A stretch of 64,000 nt of DNA from a bacterium (GTDB lineage: Bacteria > Zhuqueibacterota > Zhuqueibacteria > Residuimicrobiales > Krinioviventaceae), in contig CAXXFV010000025.1 of the NCBI GenBank assembly GCA_963674595.2, positions 1-64,000 on the forward strand. Direction: 5' to 3'. Positions 26,603 through 45,491 of this stretch are shown one piece after another (within the stretch, counting starts at the first letter, position 1; each line of letters begins with the position of its first letter). Below the pieces are notes generated by a model. It did not search any database. It was not told where the DNA came from and was given only the letters and a program-made list of their open reading frames with translations. Both the position numbers and the translations under genes were made by a program.

Positions 26603-29600
26603 ATGAAAAGATATTTTTTGAATTGTCTGGCTTTACTCATGATATTGAGTACAACATATGTTTGGAGTGATTCTCATTTTTTTGGTGCACCTCCGTCCAT
26701 ATCAGTTCCTGTATCCAATGTTGCAGAAAATATAAACATGTATACAGGAGAATTCACCGCGAATATGAATTTAGCTGGATTAGTTGGGAAAAATGGGATT
26801 TCATTTGCCTTAAATATTTTATACAGTTCCAATGTTCGTAGTAACTATAATAAAGATAATACGACAAATCAGGCGAGTATTGTTGGATTGGGTTGGAATT
26901 TGGATATTCCTGCTATTGTCGGGAATCCTAATTGTACGACTTCTACTGATCATCACTTTGATTATTTGGGTTTCGTCGCAAACGGATCTTATAACCAACT
27001 GAGGCAGATTAGTACCTCTGATTTTTATAAATTAACAGATTATAAATTTTGGGAAATTAAAAGGACAACAAATGCCAATAATCAAATCCTTAAGTGGGAA
27101 ATTTGGGATGAATCCGGTATGAAATATACTTTTGCTAACCGATGTCACCGGGTTGTAAGATATTACTATTCAGGTACAATTTTTATAGAGACAACGGATC
27201 ATTGTAAAACAATGGGTTATAGATGGAATTTAACCGAAATAGAAGATCCCTTTGGTAACAAGATAACATTACATTATGAAACCCCGGTAATAGAAAAAGT
27301 GAGTGATCTGGAATGGTTGGGAGATAGTTTTTCAGGTTATTCCGATTATACTAAAGCTTATTATCTTGATAAAATAGTTGACCAATCAACTAATAGGACA
27401 ATAAAGCTTTATTACGCAACTGGAAGACAAGATGCTGGTGACAGTAAAAATTATTTTTCACCGCTAACAGATACCAATGAAAATGGTGATAGCTGTCAGG
27501 AACTGGTATTTGAAAAAAATTTAACCGATATTAAAGTATTTGACAAGGACCCGGATATCAATCCTGATGAGACGTGCCTTAAACATACAAAGCTTAACTA
27601 TAATTATGACACTTGGAAAACAGATGATGAGTATTACCGCAAACTAATGCTTACTTCTGTTCAAGAATATGATCCCAGAGATGGTCAACCTGCCTTTCCA
27701 TCTACAAATTTCACCTATGAAACAAATACTGACTCATTAACTCATAACTGTGCTGCATTAAAAACAATAAAATTACCTAACGGGTGCGAAAAAAGTATTG
27801 TATATACGGTATTGACAATGAGTTATACTCGACATTTTTACTATACTACAAGTATTACAGTTGATGATGGCATAAATACCCCTGTTGTTACGCATTATTA
27901 TGGAACCACACCAAAACCTTATAATGATTCCTTATATGTTGGGTATAACTCTGCTCTTTTATCAACACAAGCTGCAGATTTCAGATATTATTTTGAGAAT
28001 CCGGGAGCCAGTTCCGCTGAGTTTTATAAAAGAGGTGTCTTAACTGAAATCGAAACTATGCCAGCTGGAGGAGGTAGTGTAAAAAATGAGGTTGTAAATA
28101 CATACAGTTATACTAATAAAAATGATGGATGTTATTATAAAAAACTAACACAAACTCAAGAAACAACAAATTATTCTTATCCATCTTCCGGTTCTTTAAC
28201 TTCGACTGTAATATATTCCGATTTTGATGATGATAACGGCCAACCAACAAAAATAACAACTACAAATACGGATGGTACTGTAAAGATTTTAGAAACAACA
28301 TTTGCACACGATATTCCGCAATATAGTAATATGACAGAAGACGCAGTACATATGGTTTCCCAGATCGCCCAACAGACGGTTTATGAAACCAGCGATATTA
28401 ATGAGAATGCAAAATCATCAAGTGTTACAACATATAAACAATGGGATACAGCCGACCCGAGTGTAGATACATGGGCGCCGAATAAAACCTATCAATGGTA
28501 TGAAAGAAGTGCTACAAATTCTCTCCAGGCATTTAATTATGCCTCATGGTCTATCCATGGCTATGAACCCACTTCGTCAGACGATTGGATTCAATTATCA
28601 GAAATTGCTAAGAGAGATGATTATGGAAATGTTTTATCAGTAAGATATCCTAGCTCTTTTATAGCGTTTGAGAATGGAAATTTTAGTTCAGTTCAATATG
28701 GGTATAACAATTGTCTCCCTGTCGCAGAAATTAAGAATGCTTATGTAAATGAATTTGCTTACGAAGGGTATGAAAGTGATATCTGCAATTGGGGTATTCA
28801 TGATTCGAACCGGCAATCAGTATCAAATGAAGAGGCCTATACAGGCCGGAAATCGCTCAAGGTCTTGTCATCCGATTATTATAGTGGATGGGGCATCGAC
28901 AAATCTTTTATTAGTTCAGGCTCAGACGATATAGATCAGGATTCAAAATATATTTTTACTGCTTGGGTCAAGGCGCCAGCTATTCATGATAATATTTATC
29001 TTAATATTTATTATACATTATCTGGTGGAGGGTCTGGTTATGCAACACCTTGCTTCTATACTGGAAACGGAGAGTGGCAATTATTGACCTGTATTTTGGA
29101 TCTTGGTACCATCGCCAATGTTGCGACTGTTATGCCGTTTGCGGCTAATTATGGGACTAATAGCATTGCCTGCTATTGGGATGATCTGCGTTTTCAACCA
29201 TATGATGCTGTCATGAAGACAACTGTCTATGATCCAAAAACGTTTCAACCAATTGCTTCATCAAATGCTAATAATTATCCCTCCTTTATTTGTTATGATG
29301 TTTTTGGCCGTCCTATTGTTTCTTTAGATGAGGATAAAGAACTTTTAAGCACATCGAGTTTTTATTTGTCTCGTGTTGGAAGCGGTAGCGATGAGTTTGA
29401 GAGCACAGTTCCCAATTCAACCACGTCTATTTCAGCAATGGGTGGTGGTGAGTTTGATGATTTTGAATTGACCAATTCATTGTCAAAATATACGGAATCT
29501 CAAACACCCAGCGCGGCGACCTGGTCTTTGGATGATGGTTATTTAAAATCTACTCATGTTAATGACGGTTACAGTTTTTTATCTAATCAGAATAATGTAT

Positions 29601-31066
29601 ATACCGATTTAGTATTGGAATGTGATATTAAATATGACAGTGATAATCAATTAGGCGGTTTTTTCGTTCGCAGCCAGGATGGTACCTATAACAATTGTAT
29701 TATTGTCGATGTAAACACAACAAAATTTGGATTTCGCAGACCACCTTACGGAACAACTGAAGGGGTTGTTTATGGTGGTTTAACACACGGTGAATGGCAT
29801 CGGGTCAAAATAATTGCCATAGATACAAAATACGAATTGTATGTCGATGGTGAATTGATTACCAGTATGACGAATTCATCCTATTCCTCTGGTTATTGCG
29901 GAATGATTTCACCCCATTATAAAGACAATATTTATTTTGATAATTTTTCAGTAGCAGAAAAACCGGTTGTAGCGGTAGCTTATACTGATGCCATGGGGCG
30001 TTCAATTCAAAATCAGTCCAGAGACGGTAACTATGATATTATCACAAAGACAGAATACAATTCTTTAGGTAAAGTTTATAAGCAATACAAGCCACAAAAA
30101 ATTAGCAATTCAACCCATGCATTTAAAACAAATGTGACCGGATTGTGCGAAGAGTTTACATACTCTGCCGACGGATTGGCCAGATTGACACAACAAAAAC
30201 ACCCGGACAATGAAGTGATTACTTATGCTTTTGGAAAAGATTTATTTACCTATGATATTGGTCAATCAGACTATTTTCACTATGAACAGGTAACTGATGA
30301 AAAGGACAAAGTTTCTAGGACTTATTTTGACAAATTTGGAAATAAAATCGGTGGTATTTCTGCCTTAGGTAGTGTAAATGATGAAATTAAATCGGCAAAC
30401 GATTACGATGTCTTGGGTCAGGTAACTAAAATAAAACCCCCAAATTATTTTGATCCACCATTAGGTTCTTCTGCTGGAGATTGGGATACTATCATGACCT
30501 ATGATACTATGGGTCGATTAGTGCAAAAACAATCACCTGATGAAGGAATTTCTAGATATGTCTATTATAATGATGGATCTTTATGTTACTCTCAAAACGC
30601 TTATCAGGACCAAACACATGATGGTTTTACTGTTTATAAATATGATAGATCTGGTCGCTTGTTAAAAATTTGTGAGGAAGATGATGTGACTTGGGGGCCT
30701 CCTCTGATATCAAGTATAGCATCCTATGGTTTAGAAACTGGAGAAATAAAGGTTGAGAATTTCTATGATACCGATTATTCCGGATCTGATTCGCATTTTG
30801 GTATTGGTCAGTTAACTAAGGTTATAAAATATACTGGAACCGGAGCCAATGATTTTCACCAAAGTCTTTACAAGTATGACGAATTGGGACATATCATCAA
30901 GAAAAAAATGAAAATTTTTAATGGCATTGACGTTAGCGAAAAAATTATTGAACATACTTATGATCATCTTGGCCGGGAAATTCAGCTGAAATATCCCACC
31001 GGGCATACGATTGTAAATAGTTTCGATAATTTTGGCCGGTTAGATAAAACATATTCATCCAATTAA
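26603..31066 (+). CDS. Rhs/YD shell protein, N-terminal part (no core, no toxin), with signal peptide
   Basis: Signal peptide; NMYTG...ASIVGLGWNL TcB-like start; YDxxGR repeats; carbohydrate-binding-like inserts; ends mid-repeat. Confidence 0.85.
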   Translation: MKRYFLNCLALLMILSTTYVWSDSHFFGAPPSISVPVSNVAENINMYTGEFTANMNLAGLVGKNGISFALNILYSSNVRSNYNKDNTTNQASIVGLGWNLDIPAIVGNPNCTTSTDHHFDYLGFVANGSYNQLRQISTSDFYKLTDYKFWEIKRTTNANNQILKWEIWDESGMKYTFANRCHRVVRYYYSGTIFIETTDHCKTMGYRWNLTEIEDPFGNKITLHYETPVIEKVSDLEWLGDSFSGYSDYTKAYYLDKIVDQSTNRTIKLYYATGRQDAGDSKNYFSPLTDTNENGDSCQELVFEKNLTDIKVFDKDPDINPDETCLKHTKLNYNYDTWKTDDEYYRKLMLTSVQEYDPRDGQPAFPSTNFTYETNTDSLTHNCAALKTIKLPNGCEKSIVYTVLTMSYTRHFYYTTSITVDDGINTPVVTHYYGTTPKPYNDSLYVGYNSALLSTQAADFRYYFENPGASSAEFYKRGVLTEIETMPAGGGSVKNEVVNTYSYTNKNDGCYYKKLTQTQETTNYSYPSSGSLTSTVIYSDFDDDNGQPTKITTTNTDGTVKILETTFAHDIPQYSNMTEDAVHMVSQIAQQTVYETSDINENAKSSSVTTYKQWDTADPSVDTWAPNKTYQWYERSATNSLQAFNYASWSIHGYEPTSSDDWIQLSEIAKRDDYGNVLSVRYPSSFIAFENGNFSSVQYGYNNCLPVAEIKNAYVNEFAYEGYESDICNWGIHDSNRQSVSNEEAYTGRKSLKVLSSDYYSGWGIDKSFISSGSDDIDQDSKYIFTAWVKAPAIHDNIYLNIYYTLSGGGSGYATPCFYTGNGEWQLLTCILDLGTIANVATVMPFAANYGTNSIACYWDDLRFQPYDAVMKTTVYDPKTFQPIASSNANNYPSFICYDVFGRPIVSLDEDKELLSTSSFYLSRVGSGSDEFESTVPNSTTSISAMGGGEFDDFELTNSLSKYTESQTPSAATWSLDDGYLKSTHVNDGYSFLSNQNNVYTDLVLECDIKYDSDNQLGGFFVRSQDGTYNNCIIVDVNTTKFGFRRPPYGTTEGVVYGGLTHGEWHRVKIIAIDTKYELYVDGELITSMTNSSYSSGYCGMISPHYKDNIYFDNFSVAEKPVVAVAYTDAMGRSIQNQSRDGNYDIITKTEYNSLGKVYKQYKPQKISNSTHAFKTNVTGLCEEFTYSADGLARLTQQKHPDNEVITYAFGKDLFTYDIGQSDYFHYEQVTDEKDKVSRTYFDKFGNKIGGISALGSVNDEIKSANDYDVLGQVTKIKPPNYFDPPLGSSAGDWDTIMTYDTMGRLVQKQSPDEGISRYVYYNDGSLCYSQNAYQDQTHDGFTVYKYDRSGRLLKICEEDDVTWGPPLISSIASYGLETGEIKVENFYDTDYSGSDSHFGIGQLTKVIKYTGTGANDFHQSLYKYDELGHIIKKKMKIFNGIDVSEKIIEHTYDHLGREIQLKYPTGHTIVNSFDNFGRLDKTYSSN

Positions 31067-31102
31067 TTGAATTTTATTATAGATAAATGAGAGGATAAAA
31101 AA

Positions 31103-34100
31103 ATGAAAGTATTCTCTAAAGTATATACCCTGCTTTTTCTGTTACTGACTTCTATGCTTTATGCCCAAGAAGGAGTATCGATTATTCCGGATTCTTTATT
31201 AACAAGAATTGAGAAAAAACAAGCCAACAATCGCGGTGTTGAAGTCAAATCTAAACGTACCAATTTTAGCAAGACGTTTATAAATAGTGAAACCGGTAAA
31301 CATACAGTTGTTTTGTCGAATGGATTTATGCACTATCAGGATGCAGGTGGTGAATTTCATGATATTAATCGCAGACTAATGCCAGTAGACAGCACCCACT
31401 ATGGCGTACGTGAAGGTATGTTTTATGCTTCCTTTGCCAAAGATTTGCAGGAAGACTGGCCCTTTACAGTCATGACAAAGGACAGCTCTTTTATTCGCTG
31501 GAGACTGGTATCTATGGTCTATTTTGACCAGGACAAAAAGAGCTATAAAACAGTTTATAAACTAAATCCCTCCGAACCTGATGTTGTTGGTAATTGTATT
31601 ACTTATCACAATATATTTCCGGGCGCAGATCTGCGTCTGGTATACGGGGACGTTGAGGTCAAAGAAGAGATTGTTCTCAGTGATGAGGCACGAAAAAAAT
31701 TGCCCACACCAGAGAGTTTGAGTATGAAAAGCGAGAAAACCAGCATCATGTTTTTAGCTGAAATGCAAAATAGTGAAGATATTCAGGCCTTTTCAGATGT
31801 AGAAATAATTGTTGAAAAATCCTATAATACTAAAAAAGCAATTTTCTTTAAAAATAAATCAAACAAATCACGTTTTATTTTTCCTATAAATTTTGCTTTT
31901 CTGGCAAAGGACCGTGAAGATCCTTTTTGTGAAACATTTGAACTGGATAAGCAATTTTTGTATGTAGATAAAAGTTCATTCTTTCTTTTCGGCATGTCGT
32001 TTAACCAATTTAGAGAGATACCGCAGGGAGACCTAGTCTTTGATCCGACTACAATTATCCAACCGGATGCCGCTGCAGGAAAAGATGCTCGGTTTGGTTA
32101 TTTTACTAACGGTAATTATAACTATGGTGTAAATTATATTTTGCAGTTGCATGCAAACAATTATAATTATTATGGCGGCCGTACCATTATACAATATGAT
32201 CTTGACCAGATACCTTCCAACGCAGATATTCAGTCAGCACAATTAAATATGTATTATTATTCTGATCAAAATATGTATGTGTATCACAACAGTGCTGATG
32301 CCAATATCCATCAGGTCAGCCGAAGCTGGGTAGAAGGAACCGGAAATTGTATTTATTCCAACGACGGTGTAACGTTTAACACTTATAATGGTGTTAGCAA
32401 TTGGACCAATCTTGGTGGTGATTATAATGCAACAGTATTAGATGTAGTGACTTTTTATAAACAGGATTACAAGTGGATGGCCTTTGACCTGACTTCCAAT
32501 GTGCAAGATATGGTGGACGGCACCACCACCAACAACGGTTGGATCATCAAGTGGGCTCAGGATATTTACCCTAATTTTAGTACTTCTCAGGGTGCTTTGT
32601 TCTATTCGTCAGACTATACCACAGATGTATCCAAACGACCCTATTTGGAAATAACCTATTCAGTACCATCCTTGGCGAGTTATGATTATGATTCCATTGG
32701 CCGCTTGTCCAAAGTGACCTATGCCAATGGTGTTGAAGAGTCCTATAGTTATGACACCAACAGAAACTGGATGTCTCGTAAAGAATATGAAAACAACAGC
32801 AATAATGTCTATGATATTGACTACACCTATGATGATGTAGGCAACATCACATCCCAAGTCTATGCTTATGCCATGGAAGACAATACGACCATGAATTATG
32901 ACTATAACGACCTGCATCAGCTGGATGACTTTTGGATTAGCGGTCAAGCACATTTAGCCTATGCTTATGATCCGAATGGAAATATTACTTCCAAAGAGGG
33001 AACGAGCTTTGCCTATGGAACAACCAATAAACTCGACTCAACCGGAGGTTTATCTTTTACTTATGACGCCATCGGACGAGTTATCGGTATTACCGAGTCC
33101 GGATCGACAGATAATATGAGTTATGACTTGTTCAGCAATATGACTGCTTATAACTCTAACAGTTATTCCTATGACTCTTTTAACCAGCGGGTATATAAAG
33201 ATGAAGATGATGTAGAAACCTATTATATTACCAGTGGACAGGTTATTTTGGCTGAGTATGATGGAAGTGACAATTTACAGGCTGAATATATCTATTCCGG
33301 TGGTAACCGTATCTGCACCTTTGATCCGGGACAAGGTCATTTATGGTTTTACACCGACCATTTAGGCAGTAATCGGTTAATGAGCAATTCATCGACAAAA
33401 CGGGAATATTACCCCTATGGAGATTTTTATACCACGGTGGGAGACGATGAAGTGGGCTATGAATTTTCCGGAAAAGAACTTGACTCTGGCATAGGACTTT
33501 ATTATTTTGGTTCAAGGTATTATCATCCCGGGATTGGACGTTGGTTGGTAACTGATCCGGCAGGACAGGGATTTAGTCCTTATATCTATTGCTGTAATTC
33601 ACCTGTGGTAATGGTCGATCCGGATGGTAATTTTTCTGTTTTTGGTTTTTTAATCGGATCTTATATCGGAGGAGCCTTTTTTTCTGGTATAACAGGTACT
33701 AGAGGTTTTATGAATCCAGCTAATTGGGACTATAGCGATCCCTATTTGTGGGCCTCGATGATCACTGGTGGTCTTGCAGGTGGATTTAATATTCCTTATG
33801 ATATTAGCTATGAATATCTAGCAGGAGGAGCAGGAGGAGCAGGAGGATCTTATTGCCTGCGTGCAGGTTTAAATAATTATGATGGTGGATGGCCATCTCT
33901 TAATTTTGGGGGAACAGCAAGTAATGATTGGGGCAATGGATTGGTGTCTGACGTTTCTTTTAATTTTTTCAATGGTGGATTAGGTACTCCACATGGAAGT
34001 AGAAGTTGGCAGTACGATGCATCATTCTCAGTTCATTACACTTATGGTCGTGGTTATGGAAGTGGTGATCCAATGTCGATTTATACATTAAATTACAATA

Positions 34101-34567
34101 CCCAATCCGCAATTAGAAATACATATGGTGCTTGGTCCATTACATATGGACAAATATGGACGTATAATTCTGCAACTGGAGAGCAAACACGACAGGGAAT
34201 GCTTGGAGGAAGGTATGGTGATGTTTCATTATATTATCATAATGATCATGTCGGTGCCCCAGGTTTTGGCGGTGATACAGATCAGGGCTGGACTGCTGGC
34301 TATGGAATCGCTGTTTCACATGGTGGGAGTAGTTATTTATTAGCTCAAGAACAATTTACTGGAAAAGGAAAAGGAGGGCCTGTAGAGATAATAGATGATA
34401 AGCTTTATTATGTTCAAAATCCATACCAAATGAGTTTGAATAAGGCAGATACAATTTTAAGGGTTAACGGACTAGGATTTACTTTCAGCCGTGAGCCATG
34501 GGGACAAAATTATGTTCATGATAGGGCTAATGGGGGAGCTGGAATTCCTCGTTTCTTTTATTATTAA
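31103..34567 (+). CDS. Signal peptide + WapA-like N-domain + DNRLRE-like domain + Rhs C-terminal part/core + Ntox23-like toxin
   Basis: KRTNFSKTF, QPDAAAGKDA, RPYLEITY; TDHLGS, GKELD, YYFGSRYY, PVVMVDPDG; C-terminal ND...D...QNYVHD. Confidence 0.85.
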   Translation: MKVFSKVYTLLFLLLTSMLYAQEGVSIIPDSLLTRIEKKQANNRGVEVKSKRTNFSKTFINSETGKHTVVLSNGFMHYQDAGGEFHDINRRLMPVDSTHYGVREGMFYASFAKDLQEDWPFTVMTKDSSFIRWRLVSMVYFDQDKKSYKTVYKLNPSEPDVVGNCITYHNIFPGADLRLVYGDVEVKEEIVLSDEARKKLPTPESLSMKSEKTSIMFLAEMQNSEDIQAFSDVEIIVEKSYNTKKAIFFKNKSNKSRFIFPINFAFLAKDREDPFCETFELDKQFLYVDKSSFFLFGMSFNQFREIPQGDLVFDPTTIIQPDAAAGKDARFGYFTNGNYNYGVNYILQLHANNYNYYGGRTIIQYDLDQIPSNADIQSAQLNMYYYSDQNMYVYHNSADANIHQVSRSWVEGTGNCIYSNDGVTFNTYNGVSNWTNLGGDYNATVLDVVTFYKQDYKWMAFDLTSNVQDMVDGTTTNNGWIIKWAQDIYPNFSTSQGALFYSSDYTTDVSKRPYLEITYSVPSLASYDYDSIGRLSKVTYANGVEESYSYDTNRNWMSRKEYENNSNNVYDIDYTYDDVGNITSQVYAYAMEDNTTMNYDYNDLHQLDDFWISGQAHLAYAYDPNGNITSKEGTSFAYGTTNKLDSTGGLSFTYDAIGRVIGITESGSTDNMSYDLFSNMTAYNSNSYSYDSFNQRVYKDEDDVETYYITSGQVILAEYDGSDNLQAEYIYSGGNRICTFDPGQGHLWFYTDHLGSNRLMSNSSTKREYYPYGDFYTTVGDDEVGYEFSGKELDSGIGLYYFGSRYYHPGIGRWLVTDPAGQGFSPYIYCCNSPVVMVDPDGNFSVFGFLIGSYIGGAFFSGITGTRGFMNPANWDYSDPYLWASMITGGLAGGFNIPYDISYEYLAGGAGGAGGSYCLRAGLNNYDGGWPSLNFGGTASNDWGNGLVSDVSFNFFNGGLGTPHGSRSWQYDASFSVHYTYGRGYGSGDPMSIYTLNYNTQSAIRNTYGAWSITYGQIWTYNSATGEQTRQGMLGGRYGDVSLYYHNDHVGAPGFGGDTDQGWTAGYGIAVSHGGSSYLLAQEQFTGKGKGGPVEIIDDKLYYVQNPYQMSLNKADTILRVNGLGFTFSREPWGQNYVHDRANGGAGIPRFFYY

Positions 34568-34762: not shown

Positions 34763-35326
34763 GTGAATGTTAAATGCTTTTTAATTTTACTAATGGTTGT
34801 CATGGTGTCCTGTGCGACAAATTTAAAAAGGCTCCCGGAAGGTGGATTTCGGCCTAAAATACCGAATTTTAAGCTTGCAAAATTACCTTTTAAGTTAAAA
34901 AATAATGTAATCGATACCAATACTGTTTATTATGAATTGGAATTAGATCGAGATTTTCGAATATCTTATTTTGACACATCATTTTATTTTTATCGATTTT
35001 TTTCAAACGGTAGAGTGTATGTGAGTAAAATGTTTTATAAAATTCCAACTGATGATGCTGATTATAATGAATTGAAATCTGGATATATCGGATATTATAA
35101 AATTGAAGATAATAATAAATTGATAATAGAAACATTTGAGCCGATAAATTTAGGAAAATTTGTAATCAGGTATGGAACTATAAAAGGTGATTCTATCATT
35201 ATTCATAGTGAAGATAACAGTAAACTTTTTTTTGGATTAACAGATGCTAAGATGGATATAGAAGATCTTAGTTTAGTCAAACTTAAAAGTCCTAAAATAA
35301 ATTTATATTCGAAACCTGATTGGTAA
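34763..35326 (+). CDS. Lipoprotein, putative cognate immunity protein
   Basis: Lipobox MVSC; directly after the toxin gene; low GC. Confidence 0.65.
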   Translation: MNVKCFLILLMVVMVSCATNLKRLPEGGFRPKIPNFKLAKLPFKLKNNVIDTNTVYYELELDRDFRISYFDTSFYFYRFFSNGRVYVSKMFYKIPTDDADYNELKSGYIGYYKIEDNNKLIIETFEPINLGKFVIRYGTIKGDSIIIHSEDNSKLFFGLTDAKMDIEDLSLVKLKSPKINLYSKPDW

Positions 35327-35495
35327 CTAACATTATTTAATCGCCCCAGATATCACCCCTTTGAATTAAAGAAGCAAGAATATGCTTTTATAGTCAACCA
35401 GAATTTATTTTTTTAGGGTATTATTATCAAAAAATCCTCAAAGGTTTTCATAACTTTTGGGGATTTTGTTTTTATAAGTACTTGATAATGGCATA

Positions 35496-35682: not shown

Positions 35683-35690
35683 AACATCAG

Positions 35691-36080: not shown

Positions 36081-39000
36081 ATGAAAACAAAAATTACTCT
36101 AAACCTTTTCATTGTATTTGTTTGTTTAAAAACTGTTTTGTTGGCTCAAACAGGTGGACCTATTACTGATATGATGTTTGATAATCATATAGCTTCAATT
36201 AAATATTCTTATGAAAATTTGATTGACCTATATACAGGGGATTTCCAATTTGATTTACCTTTATTTGAACTAAAATTACGAGGAGGCAAAACAATTCCAT
36301 TTTCTGCAAAGTATCAATCAGGAATTAAGATGGGACAAGTTGCAAGTTGGATCGGCTTAGGATGGCATTTTAGTCCGGGAAAAATTATGCGATCAATCCG
36401 TGGAGTTCCAGATGATTTTCGTCATTGTTATGTTGAAAAGGAGCAAGTCGGTGAGTTTACTAATTTTTCCTTGAGTCAAAGTTTAACTGGCTTACCATGG
36501 TATCGTTCAATTTGTATTTCTTGGGAGAGAACAAGACAACATACAAAGGATGATATTTATTACTATGGATACTTGTACTATCAATGTTTTAATGATGAGT
36601 ATTATTTTGACCCAAATATTACTTTTTCTGATGAAGTCTGTCGTGAACAGAGCCGGGCAAGGATGCATATGAATTTTTCTGGAAATTTAACAATGCCCTA
36701 TTTTTTAGCAATGGATGATTACTATGTGACTGGATTTGGTCCCCAGGGGAAAATTGCCCCATACAGAGATGGAGCTCAGGCCCATTTATTTTATGATGAT
36801 GAACCGGTTGAACCTATAAATAATTTTATTTTCATAAACAATGATACCAAAGCTAAAGTGAATTACATAACGGATTCGGATGGATTGATCACAGGCTTTA
36901 TTGTTACTGATATCGATGGCACACGATATGTTTATGGTTACCCTGTTTTTAATAACAGTGGGCAAGTTGGTATCGGTTATAAAGACTTTGGAGTGACGAA
37001 TAATAATTACACAAAACATACATACAACCAAAAGTATGCACTTGAATGGCAGTTGACGGCAATTCTTTATCCTGATTTTATTGATAATGGGACAAAATTT
37101 GATGGGAGAACAGTTGATACTGATGGAAACTGGCTTGGCTTGGATTATAACGACGATGGTAATTGGATTTATTTTAAATATTCTTTATATAATGATGTTT
37201 ATAATTGGAGGGTGCCTGAAAGCTCAACTAGAATTTCATCATTATGGGGTGTGTCTTCAAGTGATAGTAAACATGAAGTTAGTTATGGCTCAAAGCAATT
37301 AGTTTATTTAACAAAGATACAAACACCTATTAATGAGGTAAGATTTGAAATCGATCAATTTGAGCGACAAGATGCATTGGAAATATTTTCAAATGGTACT
37401 ATTGGTACAGACAAACCTGCCGCTTTGTCCAAGATTACCGTTTATAACTATGATGAATTAAATAATGGAAGAGGTGAAATTTGGGGTTTTGATTACAAAA
37501 TAAATTTTCATTATGATCACTCACTTTGTACTGGATCACCAAATTCCACCTCTGGTAATGGAAAGTTGACTCTAACGGATGTAGAATTTATAAGAAAAGA
37601 AGACTATTGCATGACTCTTTCAGAACATTGTCAGCCGTCTCGTACAATATCTTTTGAATATAATGATGATCCCAACTGGGACAATATTAAGTGGGATCGA
37701 TGGGGTTATTATAATAATAATGTTACTTTATATAATCATAAAGTTCCTCAAATTGGCTATAATGATGAATATGTTAGGTCCTGGAGCTTGAATAAAATTA
37801 ATTTTCATTCAGGTGGTTATATTTCAATTAATTATGAATCAGATTCTTATCATAAAGTTTTTAATCTAGACCCACAGCAGGGGATTTCCTCTGATTTAAA
37901 ATATGGAGGAGGTCCTCGTGTTAAATATTTAAAAATGAATGATGGACATGATACAGTCAATTACCGTATTTTTTATTCTCGCAATGATGTTTGTGATGAT
38001 TTTTCATTTCAAACTAATCGTGATCAAAGTTCTGGTGTTGCTGAAGGAGAACCGGAACCATTTTGTGCTTTAAATGACTTAGATACTCGACCATGGGAGT
38101 GGTATCCATTCGCAACCTATTCTATCGGATACGAACAAGTGATAGTCGTTCCAAATGCGGTCCAAAAGGAAGAAGCTGGTAATTATGGACATGATATAGT
38201 TGATGAAACAGATGGTAGGATCATTTATGAATTTACAGCGGGTGATGAAATTCCTGATATTTACACATATAATAGTAGTACGTATGAACATTATCGAGAA
38301 AATAATTCTTGGAAAAGGGGAAAAGTAAAAGGAATTAGGTATGGATTTATAGATAAAACTACTGACCAATTTTGTTGTACAAAGGAAATTACTAATCAAT
38401 ATCAGAACCTTGAAACTGAATATCTTGATTTTGATAAAGTAAGTTGGCATGATCAAAACTTTCTTCAAAATGTGAGAGTAAGATCAGATTTTGTCGATGT
38501 AATTGGTGGAAAGGCTGTGGTTAAAACAAAATCTGAATCACTTGATGGAGTTGAAACAACAACAAATATTACATATTCAAAAGTTAATGGGATGCCTGTT
38601 TCTATTTCAACAACGAATTCAGACAATGATTTAAAAGAATCGCAAGCTGTATATGCATTTCAGCAATATAAGACAGGTTTAGTCCCTTCAACTACAGAAG
38701 ATTACAGTCCAATTTTCTTGGCAAGCTGGAGGTTTGAAGAGAGTCAGGGAACAATAGTGAAGGACTATATTAATCCGATAAATACTGGGGATATGCATGG
38801 GGCTGCATGGGAAGCATCGGGAAAAATCGGTTACTGTTTGAATTTTGATGGGATAGATGATTATGTCTCAATACGAAGATCTCCTGAATATAATGTAGTC
38901 AATACATTATCTATTGAAGCATGGATTTGTCCTGATTCTACGAATAGCTCAAGAACAATAATTAGTAAAAGAGGTGCTTATGATTTACGTATAGATTCAG

Positions 39001-42000
39001 GTTATTTAAAAATCGGGGTCCAAAAAGACAATAATTTTATTTGGTACGGCTCGCAAGTTTTAATATCTGCAGATGTTTGGTCACATATTGTAGTTACTCT
39101 TGAAGGTTCAATTTACAAAATATATAAAAATGGTGTATTGGAACAAACATTGTTAACACCAGGAAATAGTACTGATATTTGGGATACAGGTTATGTTAAA
39201 GGAATTTGGATTGGAGCACATGAAGAGGCAAATAGTGTTGGGAGTTCCTTTTTCCAAGGTAAAATAGATGAAGTTTCCTTATACAATAAGGTTTTAACTC
39301 TTGAAGATGTTTCTGCTAGATACAACAGTGGGGCAGGTAAACATTTATCAGGAATGGATGCGAAATATATGTTAAGTCCAGTTTATAGTGGTATTATATT
39401 AACAAATAATAATAAATTTTTATCAAAATTGTGGACAAAATGGTGTGAGCTTGGTGATAGTTTTGTGATGGATGAAGATTGGATATGGAAGGGTCAAGAT
39501 GATGTGGCTCAAGTTCCCAGTAATCCAGGAGAAAACTATACTCTATGTACAAATATTTACAATAAATATGATGAACATAAAAATATTATTGAGACAACAG
39601 ATGCAAACTTGGTTAAAACAACTCAAAAATGGGGGTACGATGGTGCTTTAAACATTGCCACTATAAAAAATGCTATTAATGGGGAGTGTTCCTTTTTGAA
39701 TTTAGAGGATGGATGGAGTGATTGGACATCGGGAAATAGTGATCTTTATCGGACAACTTCTGATTTAGTACCGAACAATCAAGTCCATTCTGGTATTTAT
39801 AGTGCTTATTGTAGTACTGCAAGTAGTGAATATGGTCCCACTTTAAATATGTATATTGGCAGTGATGGAATTGATATCAACAAAAATTATATTTTTGAAG
39901 CATGGGTAAATATTGAAAATGGAGAGGTCAATATTGGTGCAGATGCTAGGAATGCACAAGGGCAATCAATTGCTGGAATCGGATGGTATAATTCTATTTC
40001 CACAGGTGATGGGTGGCAACTCCTTACCGTAGAAATTACTTCAGATCTTATGAGCTCTTTAACACCCGGTTGTTATTTACAGTGTTTTTGTGGTTTTCCC
40101 AATTCTGGTAGTTCCGGATATGTGGATGACCTTCGGTTTTACCCCAAAAATTCTTTAATGACAACTCAAACGTTTGATCTCTGGTCATATAATTTATCAT
40201 GCTACATGGATGAAAATAACATACCATCATTTGCTGAATACGATAATTTTGGCTTGTTAAAAACAATTAAAAATTCTAATTATGATATTTTAAAATCAAT
40301 AAGTTATAGTTATTCAAGAGACAATAATAGTGATCTTTATAACGTAGCTGATCCAAACAAAGTTATCGAAACATTAAATTTTGATGATGTTAACCAAAGT
40401 GTAAAAAGTGTATACTATGATGGATTTGGTAAAAGTATACAAACACAAATTCAAGATGGCGAAAATGATATTATTTCTGCTATTGACTATGATCTTCTTG
40501 GGCGTGAGTATAAAGTGTGGAAACCTTTTGTTGCTAATACAAGCCATGCATTCACCGCCCAATATGATGATAATGAAGATAGTGATGGTATCACAGAGAG
40601 TTGTAAAGAATATTATGATGCTGATGGTCCCGGTGTGAACTGTAATGGTTTTCCTTTTGTTCAAACAGCATATGGAAATGATCCTCTTAATCGAATTTCA
40701 AGGATTGGGAATCCTGGTAACAATTTTAATATTAATAGTGGTCACAATATATCCTATGAATATGATGAAAACTGGGATGAAGTCACATCATATACTCAAC
40801 ATAATCTATTCAAGAATACAACATTTGATGAAAATGATAATCAAAGGGAGATTTATACGGACAAATTTGGTCATACTGTTTTAGAACGTAGTTATGGTGT
40901 CTATAATAATACGTCCTATTATTCAGGAAGTATGGATCCATTGTCGGTCCCAATTACCAATAATTCAGGTGGTATTATAGATGATGATAGGGCGACTTCA
41001 TTTACACCTACTGTATCTTGCGATGCTATCTGTAATGTAAATATTATTACATCAGCAGAGGCAGGAGAAGGCATAGTTGTTGTGAAAATAGGAGATTACG
41101 AAGGAAGTGCAAACATTTGGTATAGGCAATTTACATTTTCTGCAGGTCAAAATCCGACAGATAGTTTCTCATTTAAAGTAGCGGGTGGTAAAACATATTA
41201 TGTTGCTGTTGCTGCTCAAACGGATGATTATTTGGATATTACTACTTGCACAACGACTGTTGAATATAATAATGAATTTATGGCACCAATTGACACCTAT
41301 TTTCATCATAGTATCCTGGGAAATCTTGAAAAAATAATTCCACCAAAGGCAGAGGGTGTTGGTACGAGTCCTTTATGTACCTCTATGAAGTATAATACGC
41401 TTGGTCAGCTTGTTGCCAAAGTAACACCGGACGCCGACGGTGACGGTGATGGTGATCCAACTGATGAATCTATATCAACCGATAATTTCGATTATCAATA
41501 TAAATATGACAACAATGGTAATATACGGTTTACCAAAACAGCTAAAGGAGAATTTATTTATAACAAATATGACGTCTTTAACAGGCTGGTTGAAACCGGT
41601 GTTTATGAAGGTTCGACAACCTTTGATAATGCCAATGCTTCCACATCCGGTGAGCCTCAAACTGATTTTCCGACTTTAGATAAATCAGTTAAAATTATTT
41701 ATCAGTATGATCAAGAACCTTCATGGAACGATGGAACTTGGCCGGCTGAACCGCAAAGTCCCATGTGGTTTTTTAACAATCTAAAAGGCAAAGTGTCAGC
41801 GGTTAAGTATATGACAGATGGATGGGCCTATACCTATTACTCCTACGACAAAGAAGGACGCATCGAATGGATACGCCATAGTTTGCCCAATTTACCCGAT
41901 TATTCCACCATCGAGTATGAATATGACTTGCAGGGAAATATTATACGTCAAAAATATACACGTGCCGAATATATTAGTGAAGGTCAATATTATGATATTT

Positions 42001-42794
42001 TTGATTCTTTTTATATCTGGTATGATTATGATTTACTTGGGCGCTTGTCAGCAGTTTACGCTGGTAGATCATCCTCAAAATCATCCATACCTGTTGTTAG
42101 TTATACATACTGGCCTACAGGACAGGTTAATGAACTGATCTACGGAGATCCTGCTGATCCTCTTCAAACTGTCAGTTATGATTATAACAGTCGTGATTGG
42201 GTCTCTCAAATCGGCAGCAATCTTTTTACGCAAAAATTGGGTTACCAAACAGCGGCTGATATAGCTTCCAGCTCCGCGTTTTCATCAAATTTTGATCCGC
42301 AATATAACGGCAATATTTCCTGGATGTCTGTTCTGCGCAATTCCGGTTCTCTACCTCTGACCCGGACCGGATTGTTGTTTGATTATGATTTTGATAACCG
42401 ATTAACAAACGCTGATTTTGGCTACTATGATACAAGCCAGTGGGCCAATTCTGTCAAGTATGATGTTTCTACAACCTATGACCTGAACGGTAATTTATTG
42501 ACTCTCTCACGGCAAAACAATATAACCAGCACGGCTGCAAAGCTTTACAATTATATTTATTACACAAATTCCAACAGGTTGAAAAATGTAAGCGGCACAT
42601 CAACAATAAAATACAGCTATGACCGTGAAGGTAACCTAACTTTTGATGATTATAAAAATGCGACAATCAATTATGATTATCGTAATCTGCCTTACAGGTT
42701 AGAAGTGCCGGGTATCAAGGTTGTTGGTCATTATTATGATGATAATGGCCAACGTGTTATTAAAAAGAAATCTGAATCAAGCGTAACTCCCTAA
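36081..42794 (+). CDS. Large Rhs/YD shell protein (no core) with signal peptide and LamG/CBM-like inserts
   Basis: DLYTG...ASWIGLGW, DUF6443-like segment, YNGNISW, ends YDDNGQRVIKK. Confidence 0.88.
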   Translation: MKTKITLNLFIVFVCLKTVLLAQTGGPITDMMFDNHIASIKYSYENLIDLYTGDFQFDLPLFELKLRGGKTIPFSAKYQSGIKMGQVASWIGLGWHFSPGKIMRSIRGVPDDFRHCYVEKEQVGEFTNFSLSQSLTGLPWYRSICISWERTRQHTKDDIYYYGYLYYQCFNDEYYFDPNITFSDEVCREQSRARMHMNFSGNLTMPYFLAMDDYYVTGFGPQGKIAPYRDGAQAHLFYDDEPVEPINNFIFINNDTKAKVNYITDSDGLITGFIVTDIDGTRYVYGYPVFNNSGQVGIGYKDFGVTNNNYTKHTYNQKYALEWQLTAILYPDFIDNGTKFDGRTVDTDGNWLGLDYNDDGNWIYFKYSLYNDVYNWRVPESSTRISSLWGVSSSDSKHEVSYGSKQLVYLTKIQTPINEVRFEIDQFERQDALEIFSNGTIGTDKPAALSKITVYNYDELNNGRGEIWGFDYKINFHYDHSLCTGSPNSTSGNGKLTLTDVEFIRKEDYCMTLSEHCQPSRTISFEYNDDPNWDNIKWDRWGYYNNNVTLYNHKVPQIGYNDEYVRSWSLNKINFHSGGYISINYESDSYHKVFNLDPQQGISSDLKYGGGPRVKYLKMNDGHDTVNYRIFYSRNDVCDDFSFQTNRDQSSGVAEGEPEPFCALNDLDTRPWEWYPFATYSIGYEQVIVVPNAVQKEEAGNYGHDIVDETDGRIIYEFTAGDEIPDIYTYNSSTYEHYRENNSWKRGKVKGIRYGFIDKTTDQFCCTKEITNQYQNLETEYLDFDKVSWHDQNFLQNVRVRSDFVDVIGGKAVVKTKSESLDGVETTTNITYSKVNGMPVSISTTNSDNDLKESQAVYAFQQYKTGLVPSTTEDYSPIFLASWRFEESQGTIVKDYINPINTGDMHGAAWEASGKIGYCLNFDGIDDYVSIRRSPEYNVVNTLSIEAWICPDSTNSSRTIISKRGAYDLRIDSGYLKIGVQKDNNFIWYGSQVLISADVWSHIVVTLEGSIYKIYKNGVLEQTLLTPGNSTDIWDTGYVKGIWIGAHEEANSVGSSFFQGKIDEVSLYNKVLTLEDVSARYNSGAGKHLSGMDAKYMLSPVYSGIILTNNNKFLSKLWTKWCELGDSFVMDEDWIWKGQDDVAQVPSNPGENYTLCTNIYNKYDEHKNIIETTDANLVKTTQKWGYDGALNIATIKNAINGECSFLNLEDGWSDWTSGNSDLYRTTSDLVPNNQVHSGIYSAYCSTASSEYGPTLNMYIGSDGIDINKNYIFEAWVNIENGEVNIGADARNAQGQSIAGIGWYNSISTGDGWQLLTVEITSDLMSSLTPGCYLQCFCGFPNSGSSGYVDDLRFYPKNSLMTTQTFDLWSYNLSCYMDENNIPSFAEYDNFGLLKTIKNSNYDILKSISYSYSRDNNSDLYNVADPNKVIETLNFDDVNQSVKSVYYDGFGKSIQTQIQDGENDIISAIDYDLLGREYKVWKPFVANTSHAFTAQYDDNEDSDGITESCKEYYDADGPGVNCNGFPFVQTAYGNDPLNRISRIGNPGNNFNINSGHNISYEYDENWDEVTSYTQHNLFKNTTFDENDNQREIYTDKFGHTVLERSYGVYNNTSYYSGSMDPLSVPITNNSGGIIDDDRATSFTPTVSCDAICNVNIITSAEAGEGIVVVKIGDYEGSANIWYRQFTFSAGQNPTDSFSFKVAGGKTYYVAVAAQTDDYLDITTCTTTVEYNNEFMAPIDTYFHHSILGNLEKIIPPKAEGVGTSPLCTSMKYNTLGQLVAKVTPDADGDGDGDPTDESISTDNFDYQYKYDNNGNIRFTKTAKGEFIYNKYDVFNRLVETGVYEGSTTFDNANASTSGEPQTDFPTLDKSVKIIYQYDQEPSWNDGTWPAEPQSPMWFFNNLKGKVSAVKYMTDGWAYTYYSYDKEGRIEWIRHSLPNLPDYSTIEYEYDLQGNIIRQKYTRAEYISEGQYYDIFDSFYIWYDYDLLGRLSAVYAGRSSSKSSIPVVSYTYWPTGQVNELIYGDPADPLQTVSYDYNSRDWVSQIGSNLFTQKLGYQTAADIASSSAFSSNFDPQYNGNISWMSVLRNSGSLPLTRTGLLFDYDFDNRLTNADFGYYDTSQWANSVKYDVSTTYDLNGNLLTLSRQNNITSTAAKLYNYIYYTNSNRLKNVSGTSTIKYSYDREGNLTFDDYKNATINYDYRNLPYRLEVPGIKVVGHYYDDNGQRVIKKKSESSVTP

Positions 42795-42835
42795 TTGATT
42801 ATAATTATAATGAATATAAATTTTAGGAGAAAAGA

Positions 42836-44467
42836 ATGAAAAAGTATGCCATGTATTGTTTTGCTTGTTTGTTTTTGTTTGTGGGTTTAAGCTATTCACA
42901 GAACAAATCCCGTAAAGAAGTTGTAAAGAAAAGATCTCTATATTCCAAAACATATTATAACGCAGACTCTACCTATACACTTGAGGTTTACACGTCACCG
43001 ATTCATTACCGTAAGGGAGAAAAACTGGTTGATATCAAAGAAGATATTGTTCCTTCCAATACGGATTATGCATACGAAGTCACACAGGGTCGGTATCATG
43101 TGTATTTTCAGAACCATTTTAACGATGATTATCCTGTCTTATATGAAAAAGACGGTGTGATAGTTGGTTTTGGTTTAAAAGCCATGGTTTATTGGGACAA
43201 AAAATTACAAACCTATGAAATTATTGAAAAGGCCGGTGGTAGTCCCTATACCCAAATAGAAAAAAATCAGCTTGTTTACAAGAATGTATTTCCCGGTGTT
43301 GATTTGGAATATGCTTACCTTTCAGACCAACTCAAGGAAGGTATCCGTCTGACCTCCAAGGCGCGCAGCAGCCTTCCATCGCCAACCAGTTTTAATATTT
43401 CTGAAAGTAATGCTTATTTGATGTTTCTCCAAAAAGTAGACCTCGGTTCAACTCTGCCGGCCAGTATTGGTACAGAAAAGATCGGTCGCGGATCGGAAAA
43501 ACGTTCGATTGAAACCTATGATCCGGTATGCTTCAAGGACAAAAAAGGTGAAACTTTATTTCATTTTATTGCGGATTATGCTTTCGTACGTATAGAGGAT
43601 GAAGATAAATTAGCAAACAAAAAGAACGCTGTACGTATGCTTAATCGTTTGTTTAAAGATGGTAACGATTATTACATGTTATCCGGTATACCCTATAGTG
43701 ATTTAAAGGAGCTACCGGCAGGCGACATTATATTTGATCCTACGGTTGAAGATGTTCTTGATAATTCAGATCCTACAAATAAAGACACCCAGATATGTAG
43801 TTATTCTTCTTATGTCGCCTATAATTATGGTGGCCGTGAATATGATATCAAAGCGTTTCACCGATCAAGTTATGAATACCGAACGTTGCTGGAATTTGAT
43901 TGCGGATCAGGTGTTGGTGTGGAGAGCATCCAATCTGCTACGTTGACGATGTATGCGCAGTCTTTTGCAAGTGTTGCAGATAATGTTAATGTTTATGAAC
44001 TTAACACAGAGTGGGTGGAAGGTACCGAGGACGGTACGGCCAACCAAACCGGTGCCACTTGGAATACCTATGACGGGACAAATAACTGGAGCCAGAATGG
44101 TGGTGACTTTAATACCACCATTAAAGGAACATATTATGTTGAACAGGTTGGGACGTGTACTTTCAGCCTGGATGCCACTATGGTTACCGGCTGGTTAACA
44201 ATTCCTGCCAACAACCATGGAATTCTACTTGCCTGTTCACGTGATATTTCAGGTGGGGACGAATGTCGGGTAGGTTTTTCAACATCTGCTAATGCTGATG
44301 CAAGTAAACGTCCGAAACTGGAAATTGTGTATACAGCAGACGATGGCGGTTCGTCTTCAGGTACAGGAGGTTCTACTACAACACTTCCTGCTGGGACCAC
44401 ATTTTATATTCGTGGAGCTGATGGTAATGTCGTTGCCACTTATAAAGGTGAAGAAACCAGTGAATGA
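42836..44467 (+). CDS. Signal peptide + WapA-like N-domain + DNRLRE-like domain + single terminal Rhs hairpin
   Basis: KRSLYSKTYYNADSTYT...PIHY, RPKLEIVY, GS/T linker, TTFYIRGADGNVVATY; paralogous to the N-half of 31103. Confidence 0.85.
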   Translation: MKKYAMYCFACLFLFVGLSYSQNKSRKEVVKKRSLYSKTYYNADSTYTLEVYTSPIHYRKGEKLVDIKEDIVPSNTDYAYEVTQGRYHVYFQNHFNDDYPVLYEKDGVIVGFGLKAMVYWDKKLQTYEIIEKAGGSPYTQIEKNQLVYKNVFPGVDLEYAYLSDQLKEGIRLTSKARSSLPSPTSFNISESNAYLMFLQKVDLGSTLPASIGTEKIGRGSEKRSIETYDPVCFKDKKGETLFHFIADYAFVRIEDEDKLANKKNAVRMLNRLFKDGNDYYMLSGIPYSDLKELPAGDIIFDPTVEDVLDNSDPTNKDTQICSYSSYVAYNYGGREYDIKAFHRSSYEYRTLLEFDCGSGVGVESIQSATLTMYAQSFASVADNVNVYELNTEWVEGTEDGTANQTGATWNTYDGTNNWSQNGGDFNTTIKGTYYVEQVGTCTFSLDATMVTGWLTIPANNHGILLACSRDISGGDECRVGFSTSANADASKRPKLEIVYTADDGGSSSGTGGSTTTLPAGTTFYIRGADGNVVATYKGEETSE

Positions 44468-44537
44468 AATGATGATTAAATCTTGGGCCTAACCTTGAAA
44501 TAACGGTTTGGCCCTGTTTTTTTTAGGAGAATATCAC

Positions 44538-45491
44538 ATGAAATTAACAAAGCTATTGCTAACTGCTGTTTTATTTTCTATATTTACAAGTAATGGATTA
44601 GCTGAAATTACTCCACCACCAGAGACGACAATCGAGGAGAGTTGGTATTACCACATAAACGACCATTTGGGTAGCTGCCGCACGGTTTTCAAGGACACCA
44701 ACGGCACTGCTTTAGTAGTACAGGAATTTGATTATTATCCCTTTGGTATGGAAATGCCGGGCCAGACAGATGTAGGTGGTACCAAGGCAATCTTTACTTA
44801 TTCTAACAAAGAACTTGACGACGAAGCCGGTGTCAACTTACACTATTTCGGGGCCCGGTTTTATAATGCAGAGATAGGGCGGTGGTTGAGTGTGGATCCG
44901 TTGGGAGAACTGCGGGCTCATGAGTCACCTTATTCATATTGCGGCAATAATCCTTTAAGCAGGATTGATCCTACTGGCTTATATTGGGGTATAACTGAAA
45001 TTAATGGTGAAAATGCCTTAATATGGGTTGTTGAAAAACCAGTTGTTGTTTTTGCGGACAGGTATTTTTCTCCATTAAAGATAGCTGGTTTTATTGGACT
45101 TGGGGTTTTTGCATTCGCTGAACCCTCTTTTGCGGGAGAGGCTTTGTTTTATTCAACAGCTATTGCCTCAGGTTGGAAAGTTGGTAGCTATTTAAGTAAA
45201 CAAAAAGAGCGTGAATTAAACGAGGGGAATACTGAAACAGATCAGTGGGAAGATGACGAAGGAAGAGCTCCCGATCCGAATAAAGTGTATGTAGATAAAG
45301 ATGGTAAAGAATATAAATTCAAACCCAAAAGAAATTGGGACGGAAAACCTGATAGAAAGGGAAATTTTGTGGATAAACAAGGTAGGGCTTGGAGTAAAGT
45401 AACTGATCATAAAGGATCGCATAGAAACCCTCATCGTGATATACAATTATCAAATGGTCGTGATTATGTGAGAGTATGGCCCAAGAAATAA
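44538..45491 (+). CDS. Signal peptide + Rhs core + Ntox37-like predicted RNase toxin
   Basis: RBS AGGAGA, MKLTKLLL; NDHLGS, DYYPFG, KELD, YFGARFY, PLSRIDPTG; C-terminal FKPKRNWDGK...PHRDIQ. Confidence 0.85.
   Translation: MKLTKLLLTAVLFSIFTSNGLAEITPPPETTIEESWYYHINDHLGSCRTVFKDTNGTALVVQEFDYYPFGMEMPGQTDVGGTKAIFTYSNKELDDEAGVNLHYFGARFYNAEIGRWLSVDPLGELRAHESPYSYCGNNPLSRIDPTGLYWGITEINGENALIWVVEKPVVVFADRYFSPLKIAGFIGLGVFAFAEPSFAGEALFYSTAIASGWKVGSYLSKQKERELNEGNTETDQWEDDEGRAPDPNKVYVDKDGKEYKFKPKRNWDGKPDRKGNFVDKQGRAWSKVTDHKGSHRNPHRDIQLSNGRDYVRVWPKK

Follow-up and report, generated by a model that had tools for sequence, protein, structure and literature searches.

The cocoons of Rhs proteins and of Tc toxins are regarded as cages, made of one or two chains, that fold in the cytoplasm around their own C-terminal toxin; the B and C components of the Tc toxins exist both as fusions and in split form, and self-cleavage of the Rhs core at the DPxG motif is established for the Rhs family. 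To our knowledge, Tc B and C carry no signal peptides and are assembled in the cytoplasm. Here we describe two consecutive loci, located between positions 26603 and 45491 of a stretch of 64,000 nucleotides (contig CAXXFV010000025.1 of GenBank assembly GCA_963674595.2, positions 1 to 64,000; hereafter "the window"), in which the constituents of an Rhs toxin are distributed over two and three genes, respectively. The host is an uncultured KSB1-type bacterium, several relatives of which share the split form. The comparative anatomy of these loci suggests that the split pieces probably co-assemble into one Rhs cocoon, the two loci specifying functional multi-subunit toxins and not broken genes. 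The Rhs/Tc-BC kind of cocoon is already known; the split, separately exported shell appears to be new, and searches of the open-access literature, as far as titles and the beginnings of abstracts go, turned up no description of multi-gene split Rhs proteins with signal peptides and none of Rhs proteins in KSB1.

Anatomy of the two loci and likeness to known cocoons

Seven open reading frames (ORFs) of the + strand make up the two loci, namely A, B and an ORF of 187 amino acids (aa) in locus 1 and C, D, E and a 186-aa ORF in locus 2:

26603-31066, + strand: gene A, 1487 aa; signal peptide, ~700-aa head, lectin-like middle, first two thirds of the shell
31103-34567, + strand: gene B, 1154 aa; signal peptide, N-module, last third of the shell, Rhs core, C-terminal domain
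34763-35326, + strand: candidate immunity gene for B, 187 aa, lipoprotein-like signal (..MVVMVSC); role assigned from position only
35431-35467, + strand: terminator-like hairpin of 16 pairs followed by a T run, closing locus 1; from a consensus scan only
36081-42794, + strand: gene C, 2237 aa; signal peptide, head, LamG domain (residues 923-1078), shell, no core
42836-44467, + strand: gene D, 543 aa; signal peptide, ~500-aa N-module, Gly/Ser linker, one hairpin, stop
44538 (ATG) to 45491, + strand: gene E, 317 aa; signal peptide, W.YY.DHLGS strand, Rhs core, DPTGL, C-terminal domain
45630-46190, + strand: candidate immunity gene for E, 186 aa, no signal peptide; role assigned from position only

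The shell part of A (residues 1120-1487, nt 29960-31066), which is followed by neither core nor toxin, ends with ...FDNFGRLDKTYSSN at the stop codon. Gene B begins anew with an N-module of ~520 aa that contains a DNRLRE domain (nt 31103-32665); its YD repeats, opening with LASYDYDSIGRL, start at residue ~522 (nt ~32669) and the shell part (nt 32666-33346) is followed by the Rhs core (nt 33407-33628) and by a C-terminal domain of 309 aa (nt 33638-34564). In locus 2 the shell of C (residues 1426-2237, nt 40356-42794) is whole up to the last-but-one hairpin and terminates with ...YYDDNGQRVIKKKSESSVTP, D, with its single hairpin (TTFYIRGADGNVVATY, nt 44396-44443), ends with ...TTFYIRGADGNVVATYKGEETSE, and the 22-aa signal peptide of E (44538-44603) precedes ...EESWYYHINDHLGS, the Rhs core (44733-44981) and a C-terminal domain of 168 aa (44985-45488).

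Domain searches are in keeping with this division. Pfam finds RHS_repeat in A, B and C and DUF6443 at the beginning of the shell of A and C, both of which contain lectin-like domains and lack an Rhs core. The DNRLRE model NF033679 matches B (residues 336-518) and is the only match in D (residues 324-497), whereas the Rhs core model TIGR03696 matches B (residues 769-842, 1.5e-18) and is the only match in E (residues 76-158, 1e-19), in both cases over the cut-off. Residues 42-521 of B and 23-501 of D are 29% identical (E = 5e-55), so that the two proteins have in common an N-terminal module of ~500 aa, the first ~300 residues of which match no family (none in Pfam at E <= 1 for the first 321 residues of D); likewise, residues 748-842 of B and 46-157 of E are 40% identical. 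Neither the C-terminal domains of B and E nor the two candidate immunity proteins match a Pfam family at E <= 1. Sequence searches of the PDB with A, C and a nine-member profile of the heads yielded no match, and a search for homologous proteins with A yielded a single distant one. The lipoprotein-like signal on the candidate immunity protein of B, and its absence from that of E, hints at a periplasmic target for the putative toxin of B and a cytoplasmic one for that of E.

The preliminary description of this DNA had credited all five genes with a ribosome-binding site (RBS) and an N-terminal signal peptide, and both are found: Shine-Dalgarno-like GGAG/AGGAG motifs lie 7-9 nt ahead of all five starts, and A to E all pass a crude signal-peptide rule of our own (basic n-region, no acidic residue, mean hydropathy >= 2.0 in a 10-residue window), which is passed by 22 of 29 genes when the orthologues are included, compared with 8 of the 33 window ORFs of at least 150 aa, A to D being four of these eight. 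A short GC stem (GGGCC...GGCCC) with a T run, noticed by eye in the D-E gap (44485-44524) just ahead of the RBS of E, might lower read-through into E; it is absent from the output of the terminator scan, for which its loop is too long.

With YD repeats, a TIGR03696 core containing DPxG and a variable C-terminal domain, the loci have the hallmarks of Rhs/YD polymorphic toxins. The known assemblies that they would resemble most in their working are the BC parts of Tc toxins (TcdB2-TccC3, YenB-YenC2), in which a YD/Rhs cocoon extends over two chains, the second of which bears the core plug and the variable toxin, a likeness that here derives from sequence colinearity; the core of B matches the TccC3, YenC2 and TccC2 chains at 1e-10 to 1e-15. 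On the other hand, every chain here has a Sec-type signal peptide, the second chain opens with a 500-aa DNRLRE module, and a form with three chains exists, one of which contributes a single hairpin. The head domains of TcB also appear to set the two apart: SpvB and TcdB-mid domains have no match in A or C, SpvB is not found in the genome and is weakly matched in one of nine heads (8.7e-4), and the TcA families PF18276 and PF03538 are not found in the genome, control genomes being silent as well. With the classical single-chain Rhs proteins, such as RhsA of the T6SS (type VI secretion system) and Tse5, the loci share the YD shell, a DUF6443/plug-like start, the Rhs core with DPxG, the polymorphic C-terminus, a small downstream gene and orphan arrays; they differ in having shell, core and toxin on separately exported chains and in additional E-type cassettes with a signal peptide and start of their own. 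The window showed no sign of a PAAR or VgrG context.

Register of the split shell and its conservation

According to the preliminary description, A stops in mid-repeat and B resumes in register, and this is borne out by a hidden Markov model (HMM) of the shell, 662 positions long, that was built from residues 1426-2237 of C and four orthologues and with which the other proteins were searched. The match of all five A-type proteins runs from position ~11-16 to 434-438 and ends 3-7 residues short of the protein end (14-436 in the window, five residues before the C-terminus), whereas that of all eight B-type proteins begins at 447-461, directly after the N-module, and runs to 656-658 (450-658, residues 524-701, in the window); all five C-type proteins reach 658-662 at their C-terminus (1-661 in the window). 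By these coordinates A followed by B is colinear with C over the shell; the two share no profile position and leave about nine uncovered between them, and the complete shell amounts to ~660 profile positions plus the closing hairpins and the core.

The succession described for locus 2, in which C ends, D supplies one hairpin and E continues at the DHLGS strand, is likewise evident from the translations and from an unsplit relative of the same phylum (G135:C131, 2262 aa, no N-module). This protein reads ...YDGAGNRVIKE-TTFRRSNNETSDTY-SYYLLDHLGS..., continuous through both breaks; the equivalents are ...YDDNGQRVIKK in C (8 aa more, then stop), the hairpin in D (7 aa more, then stop) and signal peptide...WYYHINDHLGS in E, so that the breaks lie at hairpin boundaries within a single uninterrupted sheet. 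One further hairpin of B (AEYIYSGGNRICTF) has no counterpart between the D hairpin and the DHLGS strand of locus 2, but nothing is missing there, since the unsplit relative lacks it too. Shell, core and toxin are thus not on one polypeptide, stops, RBS motifs and new signal peptides being placed at HMM 438/447 and after 662. Recoding or read-through across the stops was considered and rejected: none of the downstream genes lacks an RBS or a signal peptide of its own, and an unrelated 500-aa module stands at the beginning of B and D.

The same architecture was looked for in relatives, as the preliminary description had suggested, by scanning 167 genomes of the phylum with an N-module profile and mapping 16 contigs with segments of the window; the phylum tallies given here and below include the unpublished genomes G158 and/or G162, on neither of which any locus-level claim rests. 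A contig scan with a two-sequence alignment of the N-module found no relative; the profile located near-full-length copies in about twenty places. Intact two-gene loci number five (window, G140:C78, G098:C13, G157:C40 and G161:C14), in each of which the shell gene ends at the point where A does and the next gene supplies a signal peptide, the N-module, shell 447-658, the core and a toxin. Three-gene loci that are intact also number five (window, G085:C1, a second G085 site, G040:C16 and G058:C368); here the shell genes end with ...YD..G.R[VI].K (+1-9 aa), the D-type genes with TT[YF]Y[IV]R[DG]A.G[NQ]V[IV]ATY (+1-7 aa) and the E-type genes consist of a signal peptide followed by [WF].[YF]..[ND]DH.G. 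The split architecture is therefore found, window included, in ten intact loci of nine genomes and six families within one phylum, G040 belonging to another class of that phylum, at a protein identity of 23-47% across the nine genomes; the intergenic gaps measure 26-139 nt, and the adjacent combinations, ten in all, are complementary without a single mismatch. Unsplit Rhs relatives of 2000-2900 aa occur in the same phylum; the N-module was encountered in orphan fragments and at the beginning of second-gene products and nowhere else, none of the unsplit genes examined having it.

The hairpin is the best-conserved part of D: in seven D-type proteins with an overall identity of 30-42%, 9 of its 16 positions are invariant, compared with 38 invariant positions in all the rest. 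A metagenome protein 41% identical to D carries the same C-terminal hairpin, and at the second G085 locus a "mini-D" of 169 aa combines the hairpin (TKYIHGANGETLAKY) with a signal peptide and an unrelated ~100-aa domain, an E-type gene coming next. When 185,579 species genomes were scanned for the hairpin pattern, six loci emerged, the same as those already mapped. In G133 a shell gene and a D-type gene are followed by a gene that has a signal peptide and no core.

The E-type proteins were surveyed by searching a profile of signal peptide and core, made from six of them, against 1.84 billion cluster representatives. Among the best 150 matches, which were those examined, 25 have a signal-peptide-like start and then, within a few residues, [WF].YY..DH.G (DH.G at residue 28-65, mostly 30-34); 59 others start near the core and fail the crude signal-peptide rule, most of them being orphan-like and several plainly having a signal peptide; 12 exceed 1500 aa, and in the other 54 either the length is intermediate or the motif is absent. 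A look-up of ten of the 25 gave one protein with the label Calditrichia and nine metagenome proteins from short contigs. Signal peptide and core are common to all E-types, whose C-terminal domains are unrelated to one another. Owing to their own signal peptide and start, E-type cassettes should be expressible with no need for recombination. The proposal that the pieces are interchangeable gains support from the unrelated C-termini of the E-types, from two signal-peptide E cassettes in tandem in G058 and from the mini-D, in which the domain is foreign and the hairpin is kept.

A different origin would be that the loci are scars of recombination, left when an Rhs gene received a toxin cassette bringing its own 5' end, by which the old C-terminus was cut off, what is left being non-functional remnants as in rhs orphan arrays. 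Orphan cassettes lacking starts or signal peptides are indeed common in the phylum, IS256- and IS21-family transposases lie just downstream of E, and some relatives are fragmented (G161:C141) or frameshifted (G151:C36). However, the five genes of the window are long and intact, each with RBS and signal peptide, the gaps of 36-70 nt hold no remnant of a displaced C-terminus, the architecture is kept at the low protein identity given above in nine genomes, and a disrupted gene would not keep a strongly conserved tail consisting of a hairpin only. Decay of this kind is accordingly very unlikely, and the earlier claim that random breakage is improbable has been substantiated, both split types being kept in several families with breaks at repeat or hairpin boundaries.

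That false stops or chimeric joins were created at the gene junctions by assembly or sequencing has a negligible probability. Rhs repeats often break metagenome assemblies and many related contigs end inside these loci; nevertheless, the junction sequences are identical in contigs of two further runs, one from the same sample, whose contigs bridge the C-D and D-E junctions with 0 differences, and one from another sample of the same study, a contig of which spans the D-E gap. (A run holding the whole stretch may be the source of the window and is not counted as independent support.) The same junctions recur in other species whose genomes were assembled independently, one of them in a single contig, and each has a full RBS, start and signal peptide, which an artefact would not create. 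Taken at the level of genome comparison, decay and misassembly are ruled out by the five intact two-gene and five intact three-gene loci in nine genomes of six families.

Cassettes of other kinds occur alongside the split genes. Upstream of a D-type and an E-type gene, G135:C131:1-17859 (L047, L057) contains three core-toxin ORFs with no signal peptides, each accompanied by small membrane-protein genes, a gene order from which it follows that classical orphan arrays and split subunits coexist at one locus. Many ORFs (L058, L059, L060, L062; P0067, P0071, P0087, P0096, P0101) begin within DNRLRE and continue into the Rhs core, the D-type hairpin being absent in between (…RPKLVVTY…KKYFYLKDHLG); their appearance is that of orphan cassettes in which DNRLRE would serve as recombination handle, which in turn implies main genes of the form N-module-core-toxin. 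In the genome of the window itself, G000:C17:21962-24404 (L001 13759-17128) holds two more Rhs cores, in ORFs of 386 and 457 aa that have neither signal peptides nor a main rhs gene and are each followed by a small ORF; their neighbours resemble genes of a higher-GC organism (ABC transporter genes), the stated contamination of the genome is 5%, and these cores may be contamination or classical orphan cassettes. Finally, at G040:C29 (L035 5095-9592) three signal-peptide genes (390, 390 and 718 aa) separate an A-like gene from a B-like one, and dockerin-like D.NLDG motifs terminate two of these three genes as well as the A-like one.

Secretin machine and genomic surroundings

Directly upstream of A lies a cluster of genes resembling those of type IV filaments and type II secretion (14642-25271, + strand; Pfam, NCBIfam), which is followed by the gene for a sigma-54 activator:

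14642-16108, + strand: GspE/PilB-like ATPase
16141-18042, + strand: secretin
18061-19461, + strand: ORF of the secretion cluster
19455-20003, + strand: PilO-like protein
19966-20466, + strand: ORF of the secretion cluster
20466-21860, + strand: PilX_N protein
21863-22240 and 22249-22782, + strand: minor pseudopilins
22782-23918, + strand: GspF/PilC platform protein
24013-24429, + strand: pilin
24501-25271, + strand: prepilin peptidase
25352-26278, + strand: sigma-54 activator, AAA+ and Fis-type helix-turn-helix, no receiver domain (Pfam Sigma54_activat, 7.2e-65)

ATPase, platform protein, secretin, pseudopilins and prepilin peptidase thus stand together in one cluster, as expected of type II secretion; GspC, L and M were not found in it with Pfam or NCBIfam, a PilO-like protein being the only such component. 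In NCBIfam the cluster scores below the equivalog cut-offs for the GspE/GspD/GspF and the PilB/PilQ/PilC models alike (the ATPase at 554.8 for GspE, with a cut-off of 630, and at 554.3 for PilB; the secretin higher for PilQ). Of the 16 other contigs, 8 carry homologues of the cluster together with split Rhs or N-module genes; the homologues lie beside the split locus in G085, G040:C16, G098, G140 and G133; the cluster is partial (two genes or fewer) at G161:C14 and G021:C27 and divergently oriented at G037:C119, no homologue is present in the 17 kb upstream of G058:C368 or in the 6.4 kb upstream of G157:C40, and the remaining contigs are too short or too decayed for synteny to be judged. A homologue of the activator occupies the same position in five related loci. 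The PilX_N component is present in 19 of the 167 genomes, 18 of which also have an Rhs core, compared with 54 of 167 overall; G162 being among both the 19 and the 18, the figure is 17 of 18 when it is left out, and kin are not independent. Single-chain Rhs genes (2922 and 2764 aa) with signal-peptide-like starts and without an N-module also have the cluster before or after them.

As to the surroundings, the sole perfect match to the sigma-54 -24/-12 consensus in the window (51049-51064, +, TGGCACGGCAGTTGCA) is remote from the Rhs genes. Immediately downstream of locus 2, on the - strand, lie an IS256-family (Mutator) transposase gene (46545-47771) and an IS21-type pair encoding IstB (48228-48968) and a Mu-transposase-like protein (48946-50535). 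The segment 10001-14000, with a GC content of 0.45-0.50 (~0.36 elsewhere), includes a gene for a 1048-aa DEAD/ResIII helicase (10087-13233) just upstream of the secretion cluster. Between 55495 and 62736 (+) are encoded a 1031-aa protein with five CARDB repeats and a papain-type protease domain and two proteins with cohesin, dockerin or PKD domains and C-terminal sorting domains of the type IX secretion system (T9SS); given these sorting domains, the organism has T9SS cargo, unlike the Rhs pieces. Export of the latter by the T9SS was therefore rejected, Por_Secre_tail not being found in A-E though present in neighbouring genes.

Proposed assembly in trans, putative export and meaning

Each gene product would be exported unfolded through Sec across the inner membrane, and separate chains would then pair by their edge strands in the periplasm so as to complete the YD-repeat cocoon, the first product folding into an open YD spiral at whose free edge the second or third chain adds strands and brings in the core plug. 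In locus 1, A (head and shell 1-438) would pair with B (N-module, shell 447-658, closing hairpins, core plug and toxin); in locus 2, C (head and shell 1-662) would pair with D, whose N-module would be anchored by one shell hairpin, and with E, which would provide the first strand, the core plug and the toxin and be an exchangeable toxin subunit. The DNRLRE-containing N-module is expected at the seam on the outer face of the cage, where it would most likely serve in adhesion or in binding carbohydrates, the Rhs core would cleave itself at DPxG as in other Rhs proteins, and the particle would cross the outer membrane, probably via the secretin machine encoded directly upstream. Binding of the pieces and encapsulation of the toxin rest on sequence comparison, and assembly in trans is what the comparative anatomy leads us to infer.

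The order of elements in B (Sec signal, DNRLRE, Rhs repeats, core, toxin) is also that of Streptococcus suis WapA-CT1, as described in PMC12704120, and both NF033679 and TIGR03696 are positive in a Bacillus subtilis control genome. WapA differs in having the complete shell and wall-binding repeats on one chain, whereas B holds only shell HMM 447-658, in which case it would need the A chain in order to form a cocoon, and Pfam finds no LysM or wall-binding domain in it; moreover, the hosts of WapA are Gram-positive, unlike the present diderm with secretins and T9SS-type cargo. The binding role of the N-modules is a prediction from their NF033679 match: according to PMC9971899, a CBM96 member-like module binds alginate and DNRLRE is ~30% identical to an alginate-binding CBM96.

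Several facts weigh against co-assembly as here outlined. The signal peptides rest on our own crude rule and not on SignalP, and the related genomes are not independent observations. There is a problem of topology, since the toxin of the separate E chain must reach the inside of a shell made by C; by analogy with the teneurins, in which a toxin-like domain is outside the shell, the toxin of E may stay outside the cage. G058 and G157, 96% and 94% complete, have intact split loci and neither has PilX_N, and matches to the cluster secretin at E <= 1e-10 are absent from G157 and only remote in G058, so that the secretin machine is frequent but not obligatory. Nor was a sigma-54 -24/-12 site found upstream of A or C by a motif search that returned 23 matches compared with 26.8 expected. 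Some genes seem to stand by themselves: the 2.3 kb upstream of the B-type gene of G021:C27 contain no A-type gene, the B-type gene of G037:C119 has no adjacent one (the contig starts there), DNRLRE domains directly followed by the core occur with no neighbouring shell gene (several being fragments or frameshifted), and in G135 an unsplit Rhs gene and three orphan cores precede a D-E pair, from which it would follow that D-E may not need a truncated shell.

Genes of this last kind, together with the occurrence of Sec signal, DNRLRE, Rhs repeats and toxin as a stand-alone architecture in S. suis WapA (PMC12704120), would fit an interpretation in which the pieces are independent secreted proteins and their register is a relic of origin from one gene. 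A and C would then function as large adhesins whose YD sheet is open, B as a short toxin like WapA, D as a carbohydrate-binding protein and E as a small toxin with the Rhs core as self-cleaving pro-domain. We deem this unlikely, because a relic would neither hold two different break points exact in five loci each and across six families nor make a 16-residue hairpin the best-conserved part of D and retain it on the unrelated mini-D; furthermore, 25 E-type cluster representatives have their mature N-terminus a few residues ahead of the first strand, B carries about one third of a shell and E none, and the neighbouring genes complement one another without exception. Co-assembly into one cocoon remains the reading that we favor.

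That the assembled particle is exported by the adjacent secretin machine has, judging from synteny, about an even chance. A precedent for such a route is the AB5 cholera toxin, the separately Sec-exported chains of which are thought to assemble in the periplasm and to leave through a secretin by type II secretion. The likeness consists in separate Sec-exported chains, periplasmic assembly and secretin exit, here deduced from gene order; the two are not homologous, the particle to be exported here would be a ~250-300 kDa cage, and the machine has equal scores for type II secretion and for the type IV pilus.

More tentatively, these elements can be combined into a three-chain periplasmic Rhs cocoon in which a constant shell is closed by an exchangeable core-toxin subunit, a hairpin-held adaptor displays a variable binding module and a dedicated secretin machine, serving Rhs toxins in this phylum, exports the particle or displays it at the tip of a pilus or pseudopilus. 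With a conserved form made of two or three Sec-exported chains, the completion of the cage would be possible after membrane translocation, a single hairpin would serve as docking tag for an accessory domain, and toxin diversity would be gained by adding small expressed subunit genes and not by recombination into the main gene. Diderm bacteria of the FCB group would gain, by way of a secretin machine, a route of Rhs export other than the T6SS, and chains that are separate by nature would permit a direct test of how the toxin enters the cage.

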